The notes under the pieces were generated by a model. The model saw nothing but the letters and a program-made list of their open reading frames with translations. It was not told the DNA's origin and did no database searches. Shown piece after piece: positions 22,401-40,540 of a stretch of 40,758 nucleotides of DNA; positions within the stretch are counted from its first letter, which is position 1, and each line of letters opens with the position of its first letter. The stretch comes from a virus. A program made the position numbers and the translations under genes. Where the stretch lies: the UHGV virus genome UHGV-0121884, one strand, 5' to 3'.

Positions 22401-23297
22401 ATGGACCAGATGGCAGAAAACACACCAGAAGTTGAAATAGAAACCGATACATCAGAGCAGATTCCTGATGATGTCGAACTGGCTGAAGAAGTCGAAACAG
22501 AAGATGGCAGTGAGTCCTCCGGCAATGATGCAGAGGAAGCTACTGAAACTGATGACGACGAATCAGAACAGGAATTCTACTTTGGTGACGAAAAGCTGGA
22601 TTCGCCAACCAGCGAAGATGGCGCTGAGCATGGACTGGTAAAACACCTGCGCAAGACGATTAAAGAGAAAGACCGCGAGCTGAAAGAGCTGATGCGTCAG
22701 TCCCAGAAACCCGTCGAGCAGCAGCCGGTAATCACTCAACCACCGCGAATGCCAAAACTGGATGATGAGGACATCGGTTTCGATGAAGAAATCTACCAGC
22801 AACGCATGGCTAAGTGGGCGGAGGACAACGGCAAATACCAGGAGCAAGTACGAGAGCGGAAACGAGAGGAAGAGGCGCGTACCGCAACGCTTCAGCAGAA
22901 AGCAGCCAATTACATGCATAGAGTAAAAGCACTGAAAGTGGCTGGTTACCAGGATGCAGAGCAGGCTGTACGCGAAGATGTTCCTGTTCACATTCAGGAC
23001 ATGATCCTTCTTGAGTCAGAGAAGCCGGAAATCGTTGTTCTGGCACTCGGTCGCAACGCTGAACTGCGCAAGCAACTGGCAGAAGCTACCAACCCCGTAG
23101 CAATTGGTCGTCTGCTGGAACGTATCGAATCGAAGGCCAGAATCATGCCAAAAGCAAAAACCACGGCAGCCACAACCCCGACAGTTAAGGGGAGCAACGG
23201 CGCAGTAATCAATAACCTCGACAAACTTCTCGAAAAAGCGCGCGACACCGGTGATTACACCGAATACCGGGCGGCGAAGAACAAAGCTAAAAAATAA
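22401..23297 (+). CDS. scaffolding protein (P22 gp8 type)
   Basis: 298 aa, acidic N-terminus, helical, basic C-terminal coat-binding end; between portal and coat. Confidence 0.75.
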   Translation: MDQMAENTPEVEIETDTSEQIPDDVELAEEVETEDGSESSGNDAEEATETDDDESEQEFYFGDEKLDSPTSEDGAEHGLVKHLRKTIKEKDRELKELMRQSQKPVEQQPVITQPPRMPKLDDEDIGFDEEIYQQRMAKWAEDNGKYQEQVRERKREEEARTATLQQKAANYMHRVKALKVAGYQDAEQAVREDVPVHIQDMILLESEKPEIVVLALGRNAELRKQLAEATNPVAIGRLLERIESKARIMPKAKTTAATTPTVKGSNGAVINNLDKLLEKARDTGDYTEYRAAKNKAKK

Positions 23298-23317: not shown

Positions 23318-24577
23318 ATGTCTAACCAGTTAACAAAAGACCTCGAAATCCTCTTTGAGAGCGTCATTGATAGTTTTGAGGCGTCCAATGTCGTTTCCCG
23401 CGAGTGCAGCAAGTTCCGACCGGGCGACATTGAAATGCAGCGCGCTGGCGACGTTGTTTATCGCCCTCAGGGCTACCACCTGAAAACCGTGAGCGGACTT
23501 GATCTGACTTCGGCCACTGCAAACTCACTCGTTCAGCGTCAGGTGCCTGCTCGCTTCCGCGAGCCAGAGAACGTCATCTACGAACTGGACGCAAAAGAAA
23601 TGCGCGATCCGTGGCACAAAGAGCAGGCTGGCAAGGCGGCGGGTCGCCAGTTGGCGGCGTGGGTTGATAACATGATCGTCGATGAGGTGGTCGCTCGCTC
23701 CACCAACGTGGTCACCATTAAATCGGCGTCCACCGGTAGCACTCTCGGCGAAGAACTCTGGAACGCATCGGCTGACGTTGATGCAATGATGCTGTCCATT
23801 GGTGTGCCTCAGGGTGGTCAGCGCAAGGCGTTCTACAACCCGTTCAACTACAAAGACCTGGCTAAGGAGCTTGGCTCTCGCGCATATGCGGTCGGTGCAA
23901 CTCTGACAGCCTATGAGAAAGCTCAGATTCCACCTGTGGCATCCTTCGACAGTTTCCGCGTTGATTATGCTGGCGCAATGAAGGCTGGTTCAGCTACCGC
24001 TGTAACTCTCGGCGGCGCAGTAAAACACAAAGTTACCGCGATGGATTCCAACGGCGCGCCTACCGATAACCGCCAGGGTGACATCACCGTATCCACTGCT
24101 GGCGTACTGGCTGTCGGCGATGCATTCACTATCGCAGGCGTTAACAGTGTCCACATGATCAAGAAGGTGGATACAGGTAAGCCGCAGGTATTCCGCGTCC
24201 TGGCAGTAAATGGCACTACCGTTACCATCAGCCCGAAAATTCTGCCACCAGACAACGCGGATAAGGCGTCTATTCCTTACCAGAACGTTACCGCCAATCC
24301 GGTGGCAAACGCGGCGATCACCATCCTCAACAAGAAGGCTGCGGCTTCCAACATCTTCTTCGCTGAGGGTTCTGTTGAGCTGATGTATGGCAAGTTGGCA
24401 TTCCCTACCGGCCAGGGTCCGCAGGTTATGACCGCAACGACCGAGCAGGGTGCGACCATCATCATGGCTTACCAATTCGACGCTAAATCTGGCAAAACGT
24501 GGACTCGCTTCACCACGCTGGCTGGCGCAAGCGTACTGGTCCCGGAATTCACCGGCCTGGTATTGGCTAACCAGTAA
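23318..24577 (+). CDS. major coat protein (P22 gp5 type)
   Basis: 419 aa; GGAG SD; followed by strong terminator. Confidence 0.85.
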   Translation: MSNQLTKDLEILFESVIDSFEASNVVSRECSKFRPGDIEMQRAGDVVYRPQGYHLKTVSGLDLTSATANSLVQRQVPARFREPENVIYELDAKEMRDPWHKEQAGKAAGRQLAAWVDNMIVDEVVARSTNVVTIKSASTGSTLGEELWNASADVDAMMLSIGVPQGGQRKAFYNPFNYKDLAKELGSRAYAVGATLTAYEKAQIPPVASFDSFRVDYAGAMKAGSATAVTLGGAVKHKVTAMDSNGAPTDNRQGDITVSTAGVLAVGDAFTIAGVNSVHMIKKVDTGKPQVFRVLAVNGTTVTISPKILPPDNADKASIPYQNVTANPVANAAITILNKKAAASNIFFAEGSVELMYGKLAFPTGQGPQVMTATTEQGATIIMAYQFDAKSGKTWTRFTTLAGASVLVPEFTGLVLANQ

Positions 24578-32450: not shown

Positions 32451-33311
32451 TTACTTGTCTGGTGAGTGTTTATAACGGGCCTGTGAAAGGCTGTAGTTAG
32501 CAAATTTCTCAAGGCGCTCAGCAATTTCATCTAGTCGCTTAAGACGTTCGTCAAAGGGTGTATTCTTGTCAAATTTTGCATTTGACCAAAAATCTTGGCT
32601 AACCTTGTGTGCTTCTTCAACCAGTTTCTCTACTTCGCTATGCGGCATTGGAGAGATAAGTTTTTCCCTCTTTATTCGGAACTGAGAATGAATAGCCACG
32701 CCAACAACCTCGATAAAATCAGGTTGGAACATAGGGTATAAAGGGTTAAGTGGCTTAAGGTAGATTTGGCGCTGATCCAGTATAAGCTGCTTAAATGTAG
32801 CCTCAGAATCATCATTCAGCACACACATCACAAAGTCACCAGAAACAGCCTCTAGCGATGAATCGAAAGTTACGATTGTTCCAGGAGGAAAGCTAATCCC
32901 ATCACCGGAAGACATGGAGTCTCCTTGTATTTCAACGGCAAAACAGTATTCATTGGCTTCAGGAGGGGCTGGAATAAAGTCCTTTATAGCAGCAGTCTTT
33001 AGTAAATCATCTAGCGATTCAAATCTTGCCTGTACGTGTGTTAGCACAGGAATCTCGCGCACAGTAACAGTTCTCTTGACACTGCTAACGTCAGGGCCAT
33101 CTCCTTTCCCTTGCGTAAGCCATTCAGTGGTAGTTCCCAATGCAGCCGCAAGGTTTTGAAGTGCCTTTTCTCTTGGCTTGGCTTCCCCGCCCTCGTAAGC
33201 AGCGATCTGTCTGGATACCACGCCTACTTTCTTAGCAAGCTCGGATTGAGTCAAACCGATGGAGTTGCGCGCTATGGCAACTCGTTTAGAAAAAGAATCA
33301 TCAAAACTCAT
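32451..33311 (-). CDS. CI/LexA-like HTH-S24 protein with Ala-Arg at the cleavage position and a C-terminal extension
   Basis: 286 aa; XRE HTH (IGLTQSELAKKVGVVSRQIAAYE), S24 motifs GDSMS and TFKQL; region PVLTHVQARFESL aligns to C2 [13 protein letters not shown] but has AR instead of AG; about 70 extra helical residues at C-terminus. Confidence 0.6.
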   Translation of the reverse strand: MSFDDSFSKRVAIARNSIGLTQSELAKKVGVVSRQIAAYEGGEAKPREKALQNLAAALGTTTEWLTQGKGDGPDVSSVKRTVTVREIPVLTHVQARFESLDDLLKTAAIKDFIPAPPEANEYCFAVEIQGDSMSSGDGISFPPGTIVTFDSSLEAVSGDFVMCVLNDDSEATFKQLILDQRQIYLKPLNPLYPMFQPDFIEVVGVAIHSQFRIKREKLISPMPHSEVEKLVEEAHKVSQDFWSNAKFDKNTPFDERLKRLDEIAERLEKFANYSLSQARYKHSPDK

Positions 33312-33408
33312 ATTTGCACCTTAAAAAATCATTGACTCAATATTAGTCTGGTACTAACCTAATGTTGAAGATTGAGCAATTGAATAACAAAACTACATGA
33401 GGTGAATA

Positions 33409-33582
33409 ATGGAACAGAAGAAAAAAGATATCAAGCCTATCTCCTACCGCCCAAGTGCTGAAGTGCGTGAGTTTTTGGAAAGTAACGCAGCTAAAAGCTA
33501 CCGCTCGACTCAGGGGATGATCGATTTCTTTATGGCTAAGGTCATGGATATGGAGAAGAAAGGTGAAATTATCATCCATTAA
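33409..33582 (+). CDS. small ribbon-helix-helix-like protein (57 aa)
   Basis: ATG 33409 with GAGGTG upstream; PISYRPSAEVREFLESNA resembles Arc/Mnt-type beta-strand/helix; divergent from the HTH-S24 gene. Confidence 0.35.
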   Translation: MEQKKKDIKPISYRPSAEVREFLESNAAKSYRSTQGMIDFFMAKVMDMEKKGEIIIH

Positions 33583-34294
33583 AAACGTTGAAGCCCAACG
33601 GTGGCTAGACCGTCAGGCTTCGGTATCGAACAAATCCTACGACGGAAATATCGATATGAATATTGTAGCAAAATCAGATTACAACTTCCAAGGATTCACC
33701 TTTAACCCAGTAACAGAGGGCGGGTCTATCTGGTTTACCTCCACCGAACTAGCTAAGGCTCTCGGCTATAAAAAAACTGATGCCATCAGCCAAATTTATG
33801 CCCGTAATGCTGATGAGTTTTCCGACTCAATGTCATTGACCCTCAATATGAGTGTCAACGGGATAAACAATAGCTTACGTAACAAATCGGTCAGAGTTTA
33901 CTCACTCCGAGGCGCTCACTTGGTGGCGATGTTTGCTTCTACGCCCAAGGCCAAAGAGTTCCGCCGTTGGGTGCTGGATATTTTGGATCGTGAAGCCACG
34001 GATTCACCGATCGCCAAACAGTTCACAGATGATGAGTTAATCAGCCTTTGCTATCTCCAGCTCTGGATGGAAAAGAGCCAGCGGGTTAGCCAGCAACTTT
34101 ACCCGGCAATGAAACAGGCTAAGTCAGAATACGCAGGGATGCTATACGACATCGCCCACGACATTCGTTATATGACTGTGGAAACCAAGAAGATCCTGCT
34201 TCGTGAAGTACAGGAACTGGATAACAGCAATATTGTCGTGAAGCATGCGCAGCCAATGTTGGCAATGCTTCGCGGTGAGGAATGGATTCACTGA
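33563..34294 (+). CDS. Bro-N domain antirepressor-like protein
   Basis: IWFTSTELAKALGYKKTDAISQIYARN...VRVYSLRGAHLVAMFASTPKAKEFRRWV fits Bro-N; start uncertain (GTG 33563 or ATG 33656). Confidence 0.5.
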   Translation: MKLSSIKNVEAQRWLDRQASVSNKSYDGNIDMNIVAKSDYNFQGFTFNPVTEGGSIWFTSTELAKALGYKKTDAISQIYARNADEFSDSMSLTLNMSVNGINNSLRNKSVRVYSLRGAHLVAMFASTPKAKEFRRWVLDILDREATDSPIAKQFTDDELISLCYLQLWMEKSQRVSQQLYPAMKQAKSEYAGMLYDIAHDIRYMTVETKKILLREVQELDNSNIVVKHAQPMLAMLRGEEWIH

Positions 34295-34378
34295 TTGACG
34301 CACAGGACGGTGCAAAAAGAAAAGCCGACAGTTACGAGCTACCGGCTTTCATTGAAACTTGTCATAAGGGTCCAACCA

Positions 34379-35152
34379 ATGACTTTATTAAATTTAGCAG
34401 TTCATGAGCCAAATGTCGATCCCCAGCCGCTTCCAGTGATTGAATGGGAGGGTTTACGTGTTGTTACGACTGAAACGCTGGCTTCAGGTTATGGTACGGA
34501 TGAGGCTAACATTCGGAAAAACCTGTCACGCAATGCTGGACGCTTCATTGAAGGAATTCACATCTTCACTATTAAAGGCCAAGAGTTGAAGAATTTGCGA
34601 GTGACTAATAGTCACGCACAAATTTCGAACAAAGCTCGTTCAATTGTTTTGTGGACGGAGAAGGGCGCAGCGCGGATGTCGAAAATTGTCGATACAGACG
34701 AAGCATGGTCTTTCTTCGAACGGTTGGAAAATGCTTACTTCCGTCCCTTGGTAAAAAGCATCCTACCGCAGACATACGAGCAGGCTCTGGAAGATTTACT
34801 TCTAAAGGTCAAAGAGAATCGGCTTCTTGAGCAACAGCGCGACAGAGCGGTAAAAGAAAAGTTGTGGATTGCAGCAAAACGCGAAGCTACAGCAATGGCT
34901 ACCGCATCAGCAGCCGTCCGCGCCAAAAACAAATTAGCTGAACGGGTAGGGGAAGGAAAGAACTACGCCGCCATTATCCCGGTAGAAAAGAAGCTGGGGC
35001 AGAAATTCAAATGGCAGCCTCTTCGCAAGTGGTGCCGGGAGAATGACGTCACCCCACATGATGTCAACGACCCACGCTTTGGCTCAGTTAAGTCATGGCC
35101 TCGCGATGCTTGGCTTGCTGTGTATGGCGTAGATCTTCGAAAACTTTTTTAA
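34379..35152 (+). CDS. ORF6N/KilAC-type antirepressor-like protein
   Basis: N-terminal LPVIEWEGLRVVTTETLASGYGTDEANIRKNLSRNAGRFIEGIHIF fits ORF6N domain; start set at ATG 34379 (ORF track uses TTG 34295). Confidence 0.5.
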   Translation: MTLLNLAVHEPNVDPQPLPVIEWEGLRVVTTETLASGYGTDEANIRKNLSRNAGRFIEGIHIFTIKGQELKNLRVTNSHAQISNKARSIVLWTEKGAARMSKIVDTDEAWSFFERLENAYFRPLVKSILPQTYEQALEDLLLKVKENRLLEQQRDRAVKEKLWIAAKREATAMATASAAVRAKNKLAERVGEGKNYAAIIPVEKKLGQKFKWQPLRKWCRENDVTPHDVNDPRFGSVKSWPRDAWLAVYGVDLRKLF

Positions 35153-35177: not shown

Positions 35178-35203
35178 AAACCCGCTTAATCGCGGGTTTT
35201 TTA
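35178..35203. terminator. bidirectional rho-independent terminator between convergent genes
   Basis: AAACCCGC-TTAATC-GCGGGTTT flanked by A/T runs on both sides. Confidence 0.5.
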
Positions 35204-35227
35204 TAAGGAGTATTCATGATTTACCCA

Positions 35228-35764
35228 TCAAACAACCCACCAGTTTGCCTGATTGGATGCCAGCCTTGCGGTTTTTATGGAATTAATTATGCCATGCTCA
35301 AGAGCCTTGTTAGCATCCAAAATGGTCGAGTCTGCTATCAGGGATGCCCACCTAATATGGGTTCCGATGTCGATATTGAACGTCTCAACGAAGCGATCAA
35401 GATCGTTATCGAGGCATTTCCCGTACTCTCTCAATCTGGCATGGTCGGCGGCTGGGGAGGCAAAGCACCATAATAGAGGATGTAACAGGAATCTTGATAA
35501 TGGGTTTGCGAAACGTTCTGAGCCAGCCAGGAAAACGATATTAGCTATGGATTCAACATTGCTTATGTTGTGAGTTCTAACGGTAACAGGGAGTGACTTA
35601 AGAAAGTTATACGCAGTAAAGCCAGCGGCAGTTTCCCCTCCCTGACTTGATATATGGATATTTAATTCAGTTGCGCCTTGAGATAATGCGGTGAGACAGT
35701 GGTTCTGAAGTTGCCCAACAGTGGCAGTGTTAACGGGGCATAAGAAATGAATTGTGTGCAGCAT
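35228..35764 (-). CDS. ClpP-fold serine protease homolog (178 aa), translationally coupled to mnt
   Basis: Aligns to ClpP core: ISSQGGETAAGFTAYNFL vs INSPGGVITAGMSIYDTM; ESIANIVFLAGSERFANPLSRFLLHPL vs [29 protein letters not shown] (candidate catalytic Ser and His retained); start ATG overlaps mnt stop (TAATG). Confidence 0.6.
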   Translation of the reverse strand: MLHTIHFLCPVNTATVGQLQNHCLTALSQGATELNIHISSQGGETAAGFTAYNFLKSLPVTVRTHNISNVESIANIVFLAGSERFANPLSRFLLHPLLWCFASPAADHARLREYGKCLDNDLDRFVETFNIDIGTHIRWASLIADSTILDANKALEHGIINSIKTARLASNQANWWVV

Positions 35765-36018
35765 TATTTATCATCCTTGCCATAAATCTTTTTAAGTGTC
35801 TCAAACACAACGGCCTTGAACTGCTCTGCTTGCTGATCAGCCAAGCGTTCAGCTTCGTCTCGATAGCCTGCAATCGGTGATGGCTTTGAGAGAGCATCCT
35901 GAACGATTTGTAATAACTCAGAGTTCATTGACCTTCCGTTAGCCTCTGCTCTTAATTTCAATTTTTCTCTTACTTCCAAAGGCATACGGAAGTTAAAGTG
36001 CGGATCGTTTCTAGCCAT
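35764..36018 (-). CDS. mnt: Mnt repressor (ribbon-helix-helix)
   Basis: 84 aa; MARNDPHFNFRMPLEVREKLKLRAEANGRSMNSELLQIVQDALSKPSP closely matches P22 Mnt. Confidence 0.85.
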   Translation of the reverse strand: MARNDPHFNFRMPLEVREKLKLRAEANGRSMNSELLQIVQDALSKPSPIAGYRDEAERLADQQAEQFKAVVFETLKKIYGKDDK

Positions 36019-36045
36019 GCCATCACCCCAAGTTAGTGTATTGAC

Positions 36046-36066
36046 ATGATAGAAGCACTCTACTAT
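36046..36066. promoter_or_regulatory. arc operator (Oarc) overlapping Pant
   Basis: ATGATAGAAGCACTCTACTAT, the P22 Arc operator; TTGACA at 36041-36046 serves as -35. Confidence 0.6.
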
Positions 36067-36074
36067 ATTCTCAA

Positions 36075-36093
36075 TAGGTCCACGGTGGACCTA
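36075..36093. promoter_or_regulatory. mnt operator (Omnt)
   Basis: Perfect palindrome TAGGTCCACGGTGGACCTA, the P22 Mnt operator. Confidence 0.6.
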
Positions 36094-36108
36094 TATTGTG
36101 AGGTAAAT

Positions 36109-36267
36109 ATGAAAGGAATGAGCAAAATGCCGCAGTTCAATTTGCGGTGGCCTAAAGAAGTATTGGATTTGGTGCGTAAGGTGGCGGAAGAGAACGGGCG
36201 ATCTGTTAACTCTGAGATTTACAAGCGAGTGTTGGACAGCCTGAAGAGAGAGGGGATAACGGTATGA
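36109..36267 (+). CDS. arc: Arc repressor (ribbon-helix-helix)
   Basis: MKGMSKMPQFNLRWPKEVLDLVRKVAEENGRSVNSEIYKRVLDSLKREGITV closely matches P22 Arc; ORF-track upstream extension judged non-coding. Confidence 0.85.
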   Translation: MKGMSKMPQFNLRWPKEVLDLVRKVAEENGRSVNSEIYKRVLDSLKREGITV

Positions 36268-36485
36268 GGTTTATTGAGGTTGATGAGATTGGCTATGAGA
36301 ATGCACTTGGTAGAGGTAAATCTTTAGTTAACATTGATGGCATTGAATCGATAAGGAGTGGTGAATTTACGGAGATCAGAATGATGTCAGGCGGAATCAT
36401 TCCTTGCCGTGATTCAGTAGAGTCAATCAAATCAAAAATGAGTGGTCAGTGGCTTTATAGCTACAGTGACTTACAAAAACAGTGA
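36264..36485 (+). CDS. hypothetical protein (73 aa) between arc and ant
   Basis: ATG overlaps arc stop (ATGA); followed by hairpin GAAGCCC..GGGCTTC (36485-36520). Confidence 0.4.
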   Translation: MRFIEVDEIGYENALGRGKSLVNIDGIESIRSGEFTEIRMMSGGIIPCRDSVESIKSKMSGQWLYSYSDLQKQ

Positions 36486-36548: not shown

Positions 36549-37472
36549 ATGACGAGTGTAGCAATTGCAGAACATACAATCAACGTTCCATTCCACGGAA
36601 CAAATCTCTTTTTGGTCAGCATTAACAATGAACCTTACGTTCCTATGAAACCCGTTGTAGAAGGCATGGGTATGGTTTGGGCTGCTCAATTTGTTAAATT
36701 AAAACAGAGATTTGTCAAAGGTATTTCGGAAATCGAAATACCTTCTGCTGGCGGTAAACAGTTAATGATATGCCTTGCCTTTCGTAAGTTTGCGGCTTGG
36801 CTTTCAAGCATTCAGCCAAACAAAGTCCGTCCTGAAATCCGCGACAAGGTAATCCAGTATCAGGAAGAGTGTGACGATGTGCTATACGAGTACTGGACTA
36901 AAGGTCATGTAGTTAACCCACGCAAAGCTAAAAAGGCGTTGCCGGGTAAAATCACCACTGAACAGCAGGAAGCCATTAAACAACTCGTCATGAGTCGCGG
37001 TCAGTCTCTGCCAAAAGAAAAACAGGCTAAGGCGATGATCACCATGTGGTCCTCACTGAAATCCCATTTTGGATGTTCGTACAAAGAAATCAGTGAGGAG
37101 CAGTTCACCGAAGCACTGTCACTTGCAGCTCGAGTTCCACTTGAAGGTGAGTTCATTGGCAAACAAGAAGAGTTACCAGCGCCAAAACTGGATATTAACT
37201 TCCCGATTTCATGGTTTGCTGAAAATGCACCTTACGCCATTATCAGGCAGCAATGCGGTGATACTGTTGCTCTTGACCGCAGCGCACTCGTTGAATGCAG
37301 TCCGGCGTATAAACTAATCAATATTCTGACAAAAGCGGGGTATGACGTTTCAGCAGTAAGAGCTGAACTAAAAGCACTTCGCCATTTAATGGCTGAGCAA
37401 AGCTGGGCACTTAAAGAGATAGCTTCATTCGCAGCGATACGTGATAGAGCGTGCCACTCAATAAAACTTTAA
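36549..37472 (+). CDS. ant: antirepressor Ant
   Basis: 307 aa downstream of arc as in P22 immI; N-terminal AntA-like region NVPFHGTNLFLVSINNEPYVPMKPVVEGMGMVW. Confidence 0.65.
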   Translation: MTSVAIAEHTINVPFHGTNLFLVSINNEPYVPMKPVVEGMGMVWAAQFVKLKQRFVKGISEIEIPSAGGKQLMICLAFRKFAAWLSSIQPNKVRPEIRDKVIQYQEECDDVLYEYWTKGHVVNPRKAKKALPGKITTEQQEAIKQLVMSRGQSLPKEKQAKAMITMWSSLKSHFGCSYKEISEEQFTEALSLAARVPLEGEFIGKQEELPAPKLDINFPISWFAENAPYAIIRQQCGDTVALDRSALVECSPAYKLINILTKAGYDVSAVRAELKALRHLMAEQSWALKEIASFAAIRDRACHSIKL

Positions 37473-37594: not shown

Positions 37595-40540
37595 ATGACA
37601 GACATTACAGCCAATGTGATTGTATCGATGCCTTCGCAACTCTTCACTATGGCGCGTTCTTTTAAAGCCGTAGCTAATGGCAAAATTTATATCGGTAAAA
37701 TTGATACTGACCCTGTAAATCCTGAAAACCAGATTCAGGCTTATGTGGAGAACGAAGACGGTTCTCACGTTCCTGTTTCTCAACCAATCATCATTAACGC
37801 TGCTGGATATCCTGTATATAACGGACAGATTGCCAAATTCGTTACCGTGCAAGGCCATTCTATGGCTGTTTATGATGCGTATGGTGCGCAGCAGTTCTAT
37901 TTTCCTAATGTGCTGAAGTATGACCCAGATCAACTACGGCAGCAATTAGAAGACCCAGATGGAGCGAATAAATACCCAAAACTTCAGATAGCAAGATGGA
38001 GAGACAGTTATGATGTAAGAGGTTGGGGGGCTATTGGTGATGGTGTTCATGATGATACATCAGCTCTATCAGAATTACTTTCTGTTGCAACAGGTGGTGA
38101 AAAGATAGATGGGCGAGGGCTTACTTTTAAAGTATCAACTCTTCCAGATGTCAGTCGATTTAAAAATGCTCGTTTTTTATTTGAGAGAATACCGGGTCAG
38201 CCTCTTTTTTATGCTTCTGAAGATTTTATCCAGGGAGAGTTATTTAAAATTACAGATACACCGTGGTACAACGCCTGGACGCAGGATAAAACGTTTGTAT
38301 ATGACAATGTCATCTATGCGCCTTTTATGGCTGGAGACCGCCATGGTGTAAATAACCTCCATGTTGCATGGGTTCGCTCAGGAGATGACGGGAAGACCTG
38401 GACAACGCCGGAATGGCTTACAGATTTACATGAAAACTATCCCACAGTTAACTATCACTGCATGAGTATGGGGGTTGTCAGAAATCGCCTTTTTGCTGTA
38501 ATTGAGACGCGGACCGTGAGAGGAAATAAACTGCAGGTTGCAGAGTTGTGGGATCGCCCAATGAGTCGCAGCCTTCGCGTTTATGGTGGTATAACGAAAG
38601 CAGCAAATCAGCAAGTCGCTTATATTCGCATTACTGATCACGGATTATTTGCTGGTGATTTTGTCAACTTCTCAAACTCTGGTGTTACAGATGTTACCGG
38701 GAATATGACGGTGACTACTGTTATTGATAAAAATACCTTTACAGTTACGACGCAAAATACCCAGGATGTGGATCAGAATAACGAGGGTAGATACTGGAGT
38801 TTTGGCACATCATTTCACTCGTCACCATGGAGAAAAACCAGTCTTGGAACTATTCCTTCTTTTGTTGACGGAAGCACTCCTGTTACTGAGATTCACAGTT
38901 TTGCGACGATTAGCGATAACAGTTTTGCTGTTGGCTACCATAATGGTGATATTGGTCCACGCGAGCTTGGGATACTCTATTTCTCTGATGCTTTCGGTTC
39001 TCCTGGTAGCTTTGTTCGCAGACGCATACCTGCAGAATATGAGGCGAATGCATCTGAGCCATGTGTAAAATATTATGATGGCATTCTGTATCTGACGACC
39101 AGGGGGACATTAAGTACTCAACCCGGTAGTTCATTGCACAGAAGCTCTGATTTAGGTACATCATGGAATTCTCTTCGCTTCCCAAATAATGTTCATCACT
39201 CAAACCTTCCTTTTGCCAAAGTTGGCGATGAGCTGGTTATTTTTGGCAGTGAGCGCGCATTTGGTGAGTGGGAAGGAGGAGAACCTGATAACCGTTATGC
39301 AGGAAATTATCCAAGAACATTTATGACCAGAGTTAACGTCAATGAGTGGAGTCTGGATAATGTAGAGTGGGTTAATGTTACTGATCAGATTTATCAGGGC
39401 GGAATAGTTAACTCTGCGGTTGGTGTTGGTTCAGTTTGTATCAAAGACAACTGGCTGTACTACATTTTCGGTGGGGAAGATTTTCTAAACCCATGGAGCA
39501 TAGGGGATAACAACAGAAAATATCCTTATGTTCACGATGGTCACCCGGCTGATTTGTATTGTTTCAGGGTGAAAATTAAACAGGAAGAATTTGTTTCAAG
39601 GGATTTTGTCTACGGAGCCACTCCTAACAGAACGCTTCCTACTTTTATGTCGACGTCAGGCGTGAGGACGGTTCCTGTACCCGTTGATTTCACAGATGAT
39701 GTTGCCGTCCAGTCACTGACTGTCCATGCAGGTACATCAGGACAAGTTCGCGCGGAAGTCAAACTTGAGGGTAATTACGCCATTATTGCGAAGAAAGTAC
39801 CGTCTGATGATGTTACCGCTCAGAGATTAATCGTTAGCGGCGGTGAAACAACGTCTTCAGCAGATGGTGCAATGATAACGTTGCATGGTTCCGGAAGCAG
39901 TACTCCACGTCGCGCGGTATATAACGCACTCGAACATCTTTTTGAGAACGGAGATGTTAAACCTTATCTTGATAATGTAAATGCTCTTGGTGGTCCGGGA
40001 AACAGGTTCTCGACAGTTTATCTTGGCTCCAATCCTGTGGTTACCAGTGACGGAACATTAAAGACAGAGCCGGTCTCTCCTGACGAAGCATTGCTGGATG
40101 CCTGGGGTGACGTCAGGTATATCGCTTATAAATGGCTGAACGCTGTCGCTATAAAGGGGGAAGAAGGGGCGAGGATACATCATGGTGTAATCGCGCAGCA
40201 ACTTCGTGATGTTCTTATTTCTCACGGACTCATGGAAGAAGAAAGCACAACATGCCGCTATGCCTTTCTTTGCTATGACGATTATCCCGCAGTATATGAT
40301 GACGTCATTACTGGCCAAAGGGAAATGCCGCTGACTGATAATGACGGGAGCATCATTGTTGATGAGGATGATAATCCAGTGATGGTAATAGAAGACATCA
40401 TTGAGCGCGTTGAAATAACGCCAGCAGGATCTAGATGGGGGGTCAGACCTGATCTCTTATTCTATATCGAGGCGGCATGGCAGCGCAGAGAAATAGAAAG
40501 AATAAAAGCTAGGTTAGACTTAATAGAAGGGAAGCACTAA
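37595..40540 (+). CDS. tailspike: P22-type head-binding domain fused to endosialidase (endo-N-acetylneuraminidase) with C-terminal intramolecular chaperone domain
   Basis: 981 aa; N-terminus [57 protein letters not shown] matches P22 gp9 head-binding domain; C-terminal 164 aa (from Ser818, motif SDGTLK) matches K1-phage endosialidase chaperone domain; GGAG SD. Confidence 0.85.

Follow-up and report, generated by a model that had tools for sequence, protein, structure and literature searches.

A ClpP-like peptidase gene overlapping the mnt repressor gene of a CUS-3-like prophage, and its candidate role as an accessory ClpP isoform

The mnt-protease gene pair and its transcription unit

We analyzed the virus genome UHGV-0121884, a single stretch of 40,758 nucleotides (nt) that is referred to here as the window and that corresponds to a CUS-3-like Lederbergvirus prophage, of the P22 type, from E. 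coli. The subject of the analysis is a minus-strand gene directly downstream of mnt, the repressor gene of the immI region, which encodes a ClpP-like protein of 178 amino acids (aa); the features of the locus are listed in Table 1. The two genes share one nucleotide. The minus-strand sequence of the junction is …GGC AAG GAT GAT AAA TAA TG, and the A at 35764 is common to the mnt stop codon (TAA, 35766-35764) and to the ATG of the ClpP-like gene (35764-35762). The Shine-Dalgarno (SD) sequence AAGGA is found at 35778-35774, within the final mnt codons, and is followed by a 9-nt spacer and then by this ATG. The upstream gene encodes a true Mnt, as the product matched both Pfam Arc (E=3.4e-27) and Repressor_Mnt, the Mnt C-terminal domain (E=3.8e-12); moreover, P22 mnt showed 86% DNA identity with positions 35823-36100 of the window. 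When the ClpP-like gene was compared with an 80%-identical allele from Pectobacterium, 66 synonymous and 36 nonsynonymous codon differences were counted, indicating that the gene is under purifying selection. Two plus-strand open reading frames (ORFs) that overlap it (Table 1) were taken as shadows of the conserved minus-strand gene.

The surroundings are those of a P22-type immI module, with a two-domain Mnt, divergent and overlapping Pmnt and Pant promoters, arc and ant, and the mnt-arc control region was nearly base-identical to the annotated P22 region containing Pant, Pmnt and the operator. Between the start of mnt and the end of the protease gene, the scan for promoter- and terminator-like sites returned none, other than one weak match inside the protease gene. 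A GC-rich hairpin lies 29 nt past the ClpP-like stop codon. It was omitted by the simple terminator scan, but folding showed its stability on the minus strand (-13.9 kcal/mol, z=-3.6) and on the plus strand (-15.0 kcal/mol, z=-3.8); it is likely to be the terminator of the mnt-protease operon, and is predicted to be a stronger one for the plus-strand genes. The simplest reading of this arrangement would be a bicistron of mnt and the ClpP-like gene that is transcribed from Pmnt and made in the lysogen. In P22, Pmnt is a promoter active in lysogens, and since the ClpP-like gene is placed within the Pmnt unit, its product would be made in this state as well. An earlier note on this DNA had described the 178-aa ORF as overlapping the mnt stop codon and had placed it in the Pmnt transcription unit. 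The overlap was read directly from the sequence, and the P22-like promoter region, the scan finding no promoter between the genes and the hairpin behind them are all consistent with the shared transcription unit.

The likeness to P22 immI comprises the Pant/Pmnt control region, the mnt/arc/ant order and the adjoining tailspike gene. In P22, however, the arrangement is mnt-orf59a-t_mnt followed by PsieA-sieA, where the 59-codon orf59a comes after mnt without overlap and sieA has its own promoter, whereas in the window this slot is occupied by the ClpP-like gene, which is coupled to mnt through TAATG, and the C-terminus of Mnt is swapped for …YGKDDK.

Fold, catalytic residues and closest characterized relative

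The earlier note had also recognized in this ORF the ClpP core, including an S-x-GG-x3-AG loop and candidate Ser and His residues, and had proposed a profile search for the S14 family together with a structural superposition. The profile search gave a match of residues 24-165 to Pfam CLP_protease (PF00574) with E=2.2e-11 and 44.4 bits, above the gathering score of 20.2. The best PHROG match was PHROG_94, labelled 'head maturation protease' (E=7e-21), and the sequence search of PDB retrieved 9uxt_A over residues 3-175 with E=1.6e-35, the runner-up having an E value of 2.5e-7. An AlphaFold2 model generated from 20 relatives (predicted local distance difference test, 91.3; predicted template modelling (TM) score, 0.87) displayed the ClpP alpha/beta fold with its handle helix, and Foldseek placed this model on 9UXT with a TM score of 0.89 (root-mean-square deviation of 2.3 Å), and on the E. 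coli, Listeria and S. aureus ClpP with scores of 0.74-0.82.

The loop corresponds to S40-Q-G42-G43-ETA-A47-G48 and pairs with the NSPGGVITAG loop of ClpP. Catalytic positions were assigned from alignment columns, and the family alignment contained 134 distinct sequences, i.e., 132 relatives and two references, E. coli ClpP and the ClpP1 of Pseudomonas plecoglossicida (PpClpP1). Ser72 and His95 aligned with ClpP Ser97 and His122, respectively, and both were invariant across the 132 relatives. The column of ClpP Asp171 is occupied by Ser146 in the window protein and by Ala, Ser or Thr in close relatives, and an acid was never found there in that clade. The proposed Ser and His were thus borne out, and so was the superposition on ClpP, but the complete triad was not, with Ser146 in the place of the Asp. 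Collectively, the ORF is predicted to encode a ClpP-fold serine peptidase subunit with a Ser72-His95 pair. Pro96, Trp99, Asp107 and His108, arranged as HP-x-x-W … DH, were present in 99-100 of the 100 sequences of the clade at least 45% identical; these two motifs are common to the ClpP-like clade and PpClpP1 and are not found in canonical ClpP, and Asp107 may be regarded as a candidate stand-in for the lost triad acid.

E. coli ClpP resembles the window protein in its fold (TM about 0.74), the oxyanion-loop motif and the catalytic Ser and His, but the two are only 23% identical. The first residue of the ClpP-like protein aligns at about residue 26 of mature E. coli ClpP, and, because of this late start, it is without the axial gating loop and helix A. 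In E. coli ClpP, eight residues line the pocket for the IGF/IGL loops of ClpX and ClpA. Six of them are polar in the ClpP-like protein (Y60N, Y62H, F82S, I90H, L114N and L189K), and the alignment shows the other two as retained (F112F and M92I). The NCBIfam ClpP equivalog models gave 19-40 bits against cutoffs of 228-361. As judged from sequence, this is not a canonical ClpP: Asp171, the axial loop with helix A, and the hydrophobic docking pocket all appear lost. Listeria ClpP1, which has Asn for the Asp, was among the best structural matches of the model, with a TM score of 0.82.

The closest characterized relative, 9UXT, is PpClpP1, analyzed by cryo-electron microscopy and biochemistry (PLoS Pathog 2026, PMC12900304). 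PpClpP1 has 183 aa, compared with the 178 aa of the window protein, and the two are 40% identical; the N-terminal truncation, the Ser and His, and the non-acidic residue in the Asp171 column (Pro151 in PpClpP1, Ser146 in the window protein) are the same in both. With its truncated N-terminus and the residues Ser73-His96-Pro151, PpClpP1 forms a homotetradecamer with a 42.7 Å pore, and its peptidase efficiency is roughly 13-fold below that of the canonical paralog; the enzyme requires Ser and His but not the third residue (PMC12900304). ClpX is not bound by PpClpP1; with canonical ClpP, it forms a heterotetradecamer that is more active and keeps ClpX binding (PMC12900304). The window protein is, by its predicted features, a new member of these PpClpP1-type truncated ClpP isoforms.

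The genomic setting of PpClpP1 is not that of the window gene. In pseudomonads, its orthologues belong to the chromosome and have KGG stress-protein and DUF6555 genes as neighbours, and a viral-contig scan with PpClpP1 as the query recovered four loci only, all distant. Because the PpClpP1 orthologues are chromosomal and the enterobacterial clade is found in prophages, the latter looks like a bacterial second-isoform ClpP taken up by phages. The ClpP-like subfamily is small: among 1.84 billion 50%-identity cluster representatives, we found 8 proteins at E<=1e-30 and 524 at E<=1e-10. We also considered PpClpP1 itself as prophage-borne, and this was rejected, as two orthologue clusters were chromosomal with conserved non-phage neighbours. 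The KGG-repeat stress-protein (PF10685) and DUF6555 genes flank the PpClpP1 orthologues in several Pseudomonas species (loci L139-L142), hinting at a stress-linked role for PpClpP1, a topic not raised in the structural paper.

Conservation, mobility and distribution of the cassette

The ClpP-like gene was found in 128 of 5,426 complete E. coli genomes, always on the chromosome; the type strain ATCC 11775 and APEC O1 are among the carriers. Among the E. coli matches listed, it overlapped an 'Arc family DNA-binding protein' gene in 28 of 30 rows. The phage records containing the gene were 6 of 50,697. It appears to be mis-annotated twice. In the phage records, it is labelled hypothetical or 'head maturation protease', and, in the 128 E. 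coli genomes, RefSeq names it 'ATP-dependent Clp protease proteolytic subunit', which is misleading because the protein is predicted to be without ATPase-binding features.

The cassette was examined in 46 loci, selected for intactness and at least 80% identity of the protease, and for enough flanking sequence. In every one of them, a Mnt-like gene lies upstream with the same 1-nt overlap. In these loci, 13 different Mnt proteins are encoded, whose N-terminal ribbon-helix-helix segments fall into about six unrelated types (for example, HFNFRMP, TTVRIP, LGIRIP, QVNLRLP, QFKLRLP and QINIRIS), which presumably differ in operator specificity, and the protease stays 97-100% identical while the Mnt specificity changes. 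The other end of Mnt is constant: all 13 proteins terminate in …ETLK(T/K)(M/I)Y(G/A)KD(E/D)K, and the arrangement AAGGAT…AAATAATG (AAGGAT-N8-ATG with TAATG) was kept in 16/16 distinct junction sequences from the 46 loci. In contrast, Mnt proteins with no protease downstream have other C-termini. CUS-3 Mnt2, whose N-terminus is nearly equal to that of the window Mnt, ends in …KKMYETR, and P22 Mnt differs over the last ~19 codons. The constancy of tail and junction, set against the differing tails found without the protease, therefore indicates that the putative mobile unit includes the 3' end of mnt, and consists of the last mnt codons, the SD sequence, TAATG and the protease gene. The downstream boundary of the cassette was placed ~24 nt past the ClpP-like stop codon. 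Two loci (L055 and L061) contain two or three tandem mnt-like genes before the protease. In CUS-3, the named phage most closely related to the window (locus L138, 5006-6927), a tandem pair of mnt genes precedes two hypothetical genes and hkcB, and a ClpP-like gene is absent.

A divergent arc accompanies the protease-mnt pair, and an ant-like gene is present in most loci. In the Lederbergvirus phiv205-1, protease-mnt faces arc-small ORF-ant, with gene 16, of the neighbouring ejection-protein genes, on one side of the module and the tailspike gene on the other, and in the lambda-like PhiR12 phages the protease-mnt pair and the divergent arc-ant pair are placed between the tail genes L and K. The whole of this module is inserted in Escherichia phage PhiR12_1, a siphovirus (locus L002, 5035-7047), and its presence there suggests that the immI-type module moves with the protease between phage types as a unit.

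A prophage location was observed for the window gene and in six further enterobacterial and Chromobacterium contexts. The proposal that every homologue has a Mnt-like gene upstream was rejected, since this holds only for the clade at least 80% identical; the homologues 52-75% identical lie in prophages and are solitary, without an adjoining Mnt/Arc gene. In Klebsiella and Leclercia prophages, the solitary homologue is on the opposite strand, flanked by the lysis cassette and the terminase genes; in a Proteus prophage, it is found between the N antiterminator and the ERF/SSB recombination genes; and in a Chromobacterium prophage, between lysis and tail-fibre genes. From this gene order, the positions of the distant homologues are assigned as classical cargo (moron) positions, and immI did not stand as the specific home of the family. 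The Klebsiella homologue (loci L121-L123, 6001-6717) was called as a 238-aa protein with a ~55-residue N-terminal extension that is unique in the family; it is probably a mis-called start, and the conserved MIHTVHF start is internal to it. Downstream of mnt, P22 carries orf59a as part of the mnt transcript, followed by the exclusion gene sieA, which is expressed in the lysogen, and CUS-3 carries two unrelated ORFs. As the contents differ in P22, CUS-3 and the window, the region downstream of mnt appears to be a variable cargo slot.

The literature searched on ClpP-like prophage genes, Mnt/immI, CUS-3, phiv205-1 and second-ClpP topics contained nothing on a phage mnt-protease cassette. The suggestion that this is an undescribed module was thus upheld in part. 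The kind of protein is known, from the RefSeq name and the PpClpP1 structure; the cassette with a built-in coupling signal on many mnt alleles, and the ClpP-like family as general prophage cargo in Enterobacterales, appear to be undescribed in the searched literature.

Proposed function, alternative explanations and neighbouring genes

Our preferred explanation, to which we give a probability of roughly 0.6, is that the ClpP-like protein is a lysogen-expressed accessory ClpP isoform that acts on or with the host Clp system. Here, the gene would be prophage cargo with no part in virion assembly; Pmnt would co-transcribe it with mnt, and coupled translation would yield the protease whenever Mnt is made, i.e., in the lysogen. 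By analogy with PpClpP1, the product may form a barrel that has a wide pore, a weak peptidase activity of its own and no ClpX recruitment. One of its rings may stack on a ring of the single host ClpP to generate a two-isoform E. coli core, and such a mixed core would alter the output of ClpXP and ClpAP proteolysis in the lysogen. Two-isoform systems are known as ClpP1/P2 in Listeria, Mycobacterium and P. aeruginosa, where the second isoforms are chromosomal paralogs. The proposed mode is similar, with a partly degenerate second isoform as one ring of a mixed tetradecamer, and the difference is that here a prophage would supply the second isoform and turn it on with lysogeny. Clp substrates include RpoS, LexA fragments, ssrA-tagged proteins and lambda O; the candidates in this case are antirepressors, proteins of superinfecting phages, cleaved repressor or LexA fragments, and host regulators such as RpoS. 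An antirepressor substrate would explain a constant protease with a variable Mnt, and ClpXP-dependent removal of cleaved repressor and LexA fragments reportedly completes induction in other systems.

Several points speak against the accessory isoform. The biology of PpClpP1 may not transfer, because of the identity of only 40% and the chromosomal stress-gene setting of that protein. That the gene is invariably linked to mnt in the E. coli clade could mean that it is functionally bound to immI, and does not just make use of a lysogenic promoter. In PADLOC-DB 2.0 (5,027 models), 0 families matched the ClpP-like protein at E<=1, giving no link to known defence. Finally, the putative terminator hairpin has a strong U-tract on the plus strand, but the minus-strand one (UUUGAUU) is weak.

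Bound to immI by function, the peptidase would be a dedicated component of this region that degrades Ant (or Arc) and guards the prophage from unwanted induction, either by clearing leaky Ant or by removing the Ant of hetero-immune superinfectors that are beyond the reach of the resident Mnt. The E. coli/Pectobacterium clade is always mnt-fused and found with arc and ant, even in lambda-like phages, and near-identity of the protease beside a variable Mnt is expected of an operator-independent function. Nevertheless, we regard this role as unlikely: the solitary homologues without Mnt/Arc neighbours weaken a dedicated Ant/Arc turnover, the Ant types differ (P22_AR_N in the window and Bro-N in Pectobacterium) and offer no common substrate sequence, and, with no recognizable unfoldase-docking surface on the protease, folded Ant would require a partner. 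The wide pore of PpClpP1 and its inability to bind ClpX fit with autonomous action on unstructured polypeptides, as would be needed for a stand-alone superinfection exclusion or anti-phage defence, in which an ungated, unfoldase-independent barrel expressed in the lysogen degrades unfolded or newly made phage proteins or triggers abortive proteolysis. The cargo slots are typical of exclusion and defence genes, with P22 sieA downstream of the mnt operon and other homologues on the opposite strand at the lysis/terminase boundary; but the absence of a match among the PADLOC models and of a partner sensor or effector gene, and the low activity of the PpClpP1 homo-oligomer, make such a defence improbable in our judgment.

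A protein that has lost its triad Asp, gating loops and docking pocket could also be a catalytically crippled pseudo-protease, poisoning or sequestering the ClpP rings of the host, since a mixed barrel would have one face unable to bind an unfoldase; ClpXP/ClpAP activity would then be lower in the lysogen, for example stabilizing a phage or host protein. This is very unlikely when the invariance of Ser72 and His95 is considered, and, with PpClpP1, loss of the third residue is tolerated and activity rises in the hetero-complex instead of falling. A head-maturation (prohead) protease is the function suggested by the PHROG_94 label and by the GenBank annotation of phiv205-1, which uses this name, and the ClpP-related prohead proteases (PHROG_94 and NCBIfam Clp_rel_HeadMat, NF045542) do share the fold and a distant sequence similarity with the window protein. 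However, the NF045542 score was 49.3 bits against a cutoff of 120, and the gene is outside the head cluster, on the opposite strand and in a repressor operon. In addition, P22-type scaffold and coat genes follow each other directly in the window, a six-frame scan of the window with the family profile detected no second ClpP-like ORF, and P22-type assembly releases the scaffold intact, with no proteolysis. A Leclercia prophage carrying a homologue has a separate 284-aa S14 protease between portal and capsid. The prohead function is effectively refuted, in line with the doubt already expressed in the earlier note.

If the protein is indeed an accessory ClpP isoform, about 2% of E. coli strains, a textbook single-ClpP organism, would carry a prophage-added and unfoldase-blind second ClpP, and Clp proteolysis could differ between lysogens and non-lysogens. 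A protease would also join the classical Mnt/Arc/Ant circuit, which is treated as purely transcriptional and antisense. A bolder proposal, which we put forward tentatively and with considerable doubt, is that the cassette of mnt 3' end, SD sequence and ClpP-like gene is a new functional unit, a lysogeny-switched second ClpP ring that reprograms host ClpXP/ClpAP. If true, antirepressors or other proteins of superinfectors could be destroyed, or the speed of repressor-fragment clearance could be set during induction, and a protease-based layer of immunity or induction control would be attached to immI. Should the gene be neutral cargo, it would still be a clean example of a cassette that brings its own translational-coupling signal into different repressor alleles.

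Table 1. Positions of the ClpP-like gene, the immI region and other features in the window
Feature	Position	Strand	Basis or remark
ClpP-like peptidase gene (178 aa)	35228-35764	-	N-terminally truncated ClpP isoform, PpClpP1 type (predicted)
mnt (84 aa), ribbon-helix-helix immI repressor	35764-36018	-	Pfam Arc and Repressor_Mnt
Translational-coupling junction	35762-35778	-	Read off the sequence
Pmnt (TTGAGA-17 nt-TATCAT)	36046-36074	-	Consensus scan; overlaps divergent Pant
Pant (TTGACA-17-TATATT)	36041-36069	+	Consensus scan
8-bp GC-rich hairpin	35178-35199		Folding; common to convergent units; putative mnt-protease terminator
arc (52 aa)	36109-36267	+	Pfam Arc, E=5.9e-26; start set by alignment to P22 arc
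73-aa ORF	36264-36485	+	phrog_11805, E=2.8e-53
ant (307 aa), antirepressor, immI output	36549-37472	+	Pfam P22_AR_N, E=6.9e-40
Tailspike gene	37595-40540	+	
Shadow ORF	35216-35473	+	Overlaps the ClpP-like gene
Shadow ORF	35253-35573	+	Overlaps the ClpP-like gene
P22-type scaffold	22401-23297		Directly followed by coat
P22-type coat	23318-24577		Directly after scaffold
Second repressor/antirepressor-like module	32451-35152		
HTH_3 + Peptidase_S24 (LexA/CI-like) repressor, 286 aa	32451-33311	-	
57-aa ORF	33409-33582		Divergent from S24 repressor
Bro-N/P22_AR_C protein	33563-34294		Divergent from S24 repressor; weak PADLOC PDC-S05 match
ORF6N protein	34295-35152		Divergent from S24 repressor; weak PADLOC PDC-S05 match

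The 73-aa ORF separates arc from ant, with a start that overlaps the stop codon of arc; at this place, P22 has only the sar antisense RNA region, and phiv205-1 has a smaller ORF. In the tailspike, an N-terminal head-binding part of the P22 type is joined to a K1 endosialidase of the CUS-3 type, pointing to a K1-capsule-specific prophage. On the other side, the second repressor/antirepressor-like module is placed between the gene-16 homologue and the ClpP-like gene, and the neighbours of the ClpP-like gene gave just weak helix-turn-helix and PDC-S05 matches with PADLOC. With the classical ant included, the prophage contains three antirepressor-like genes.

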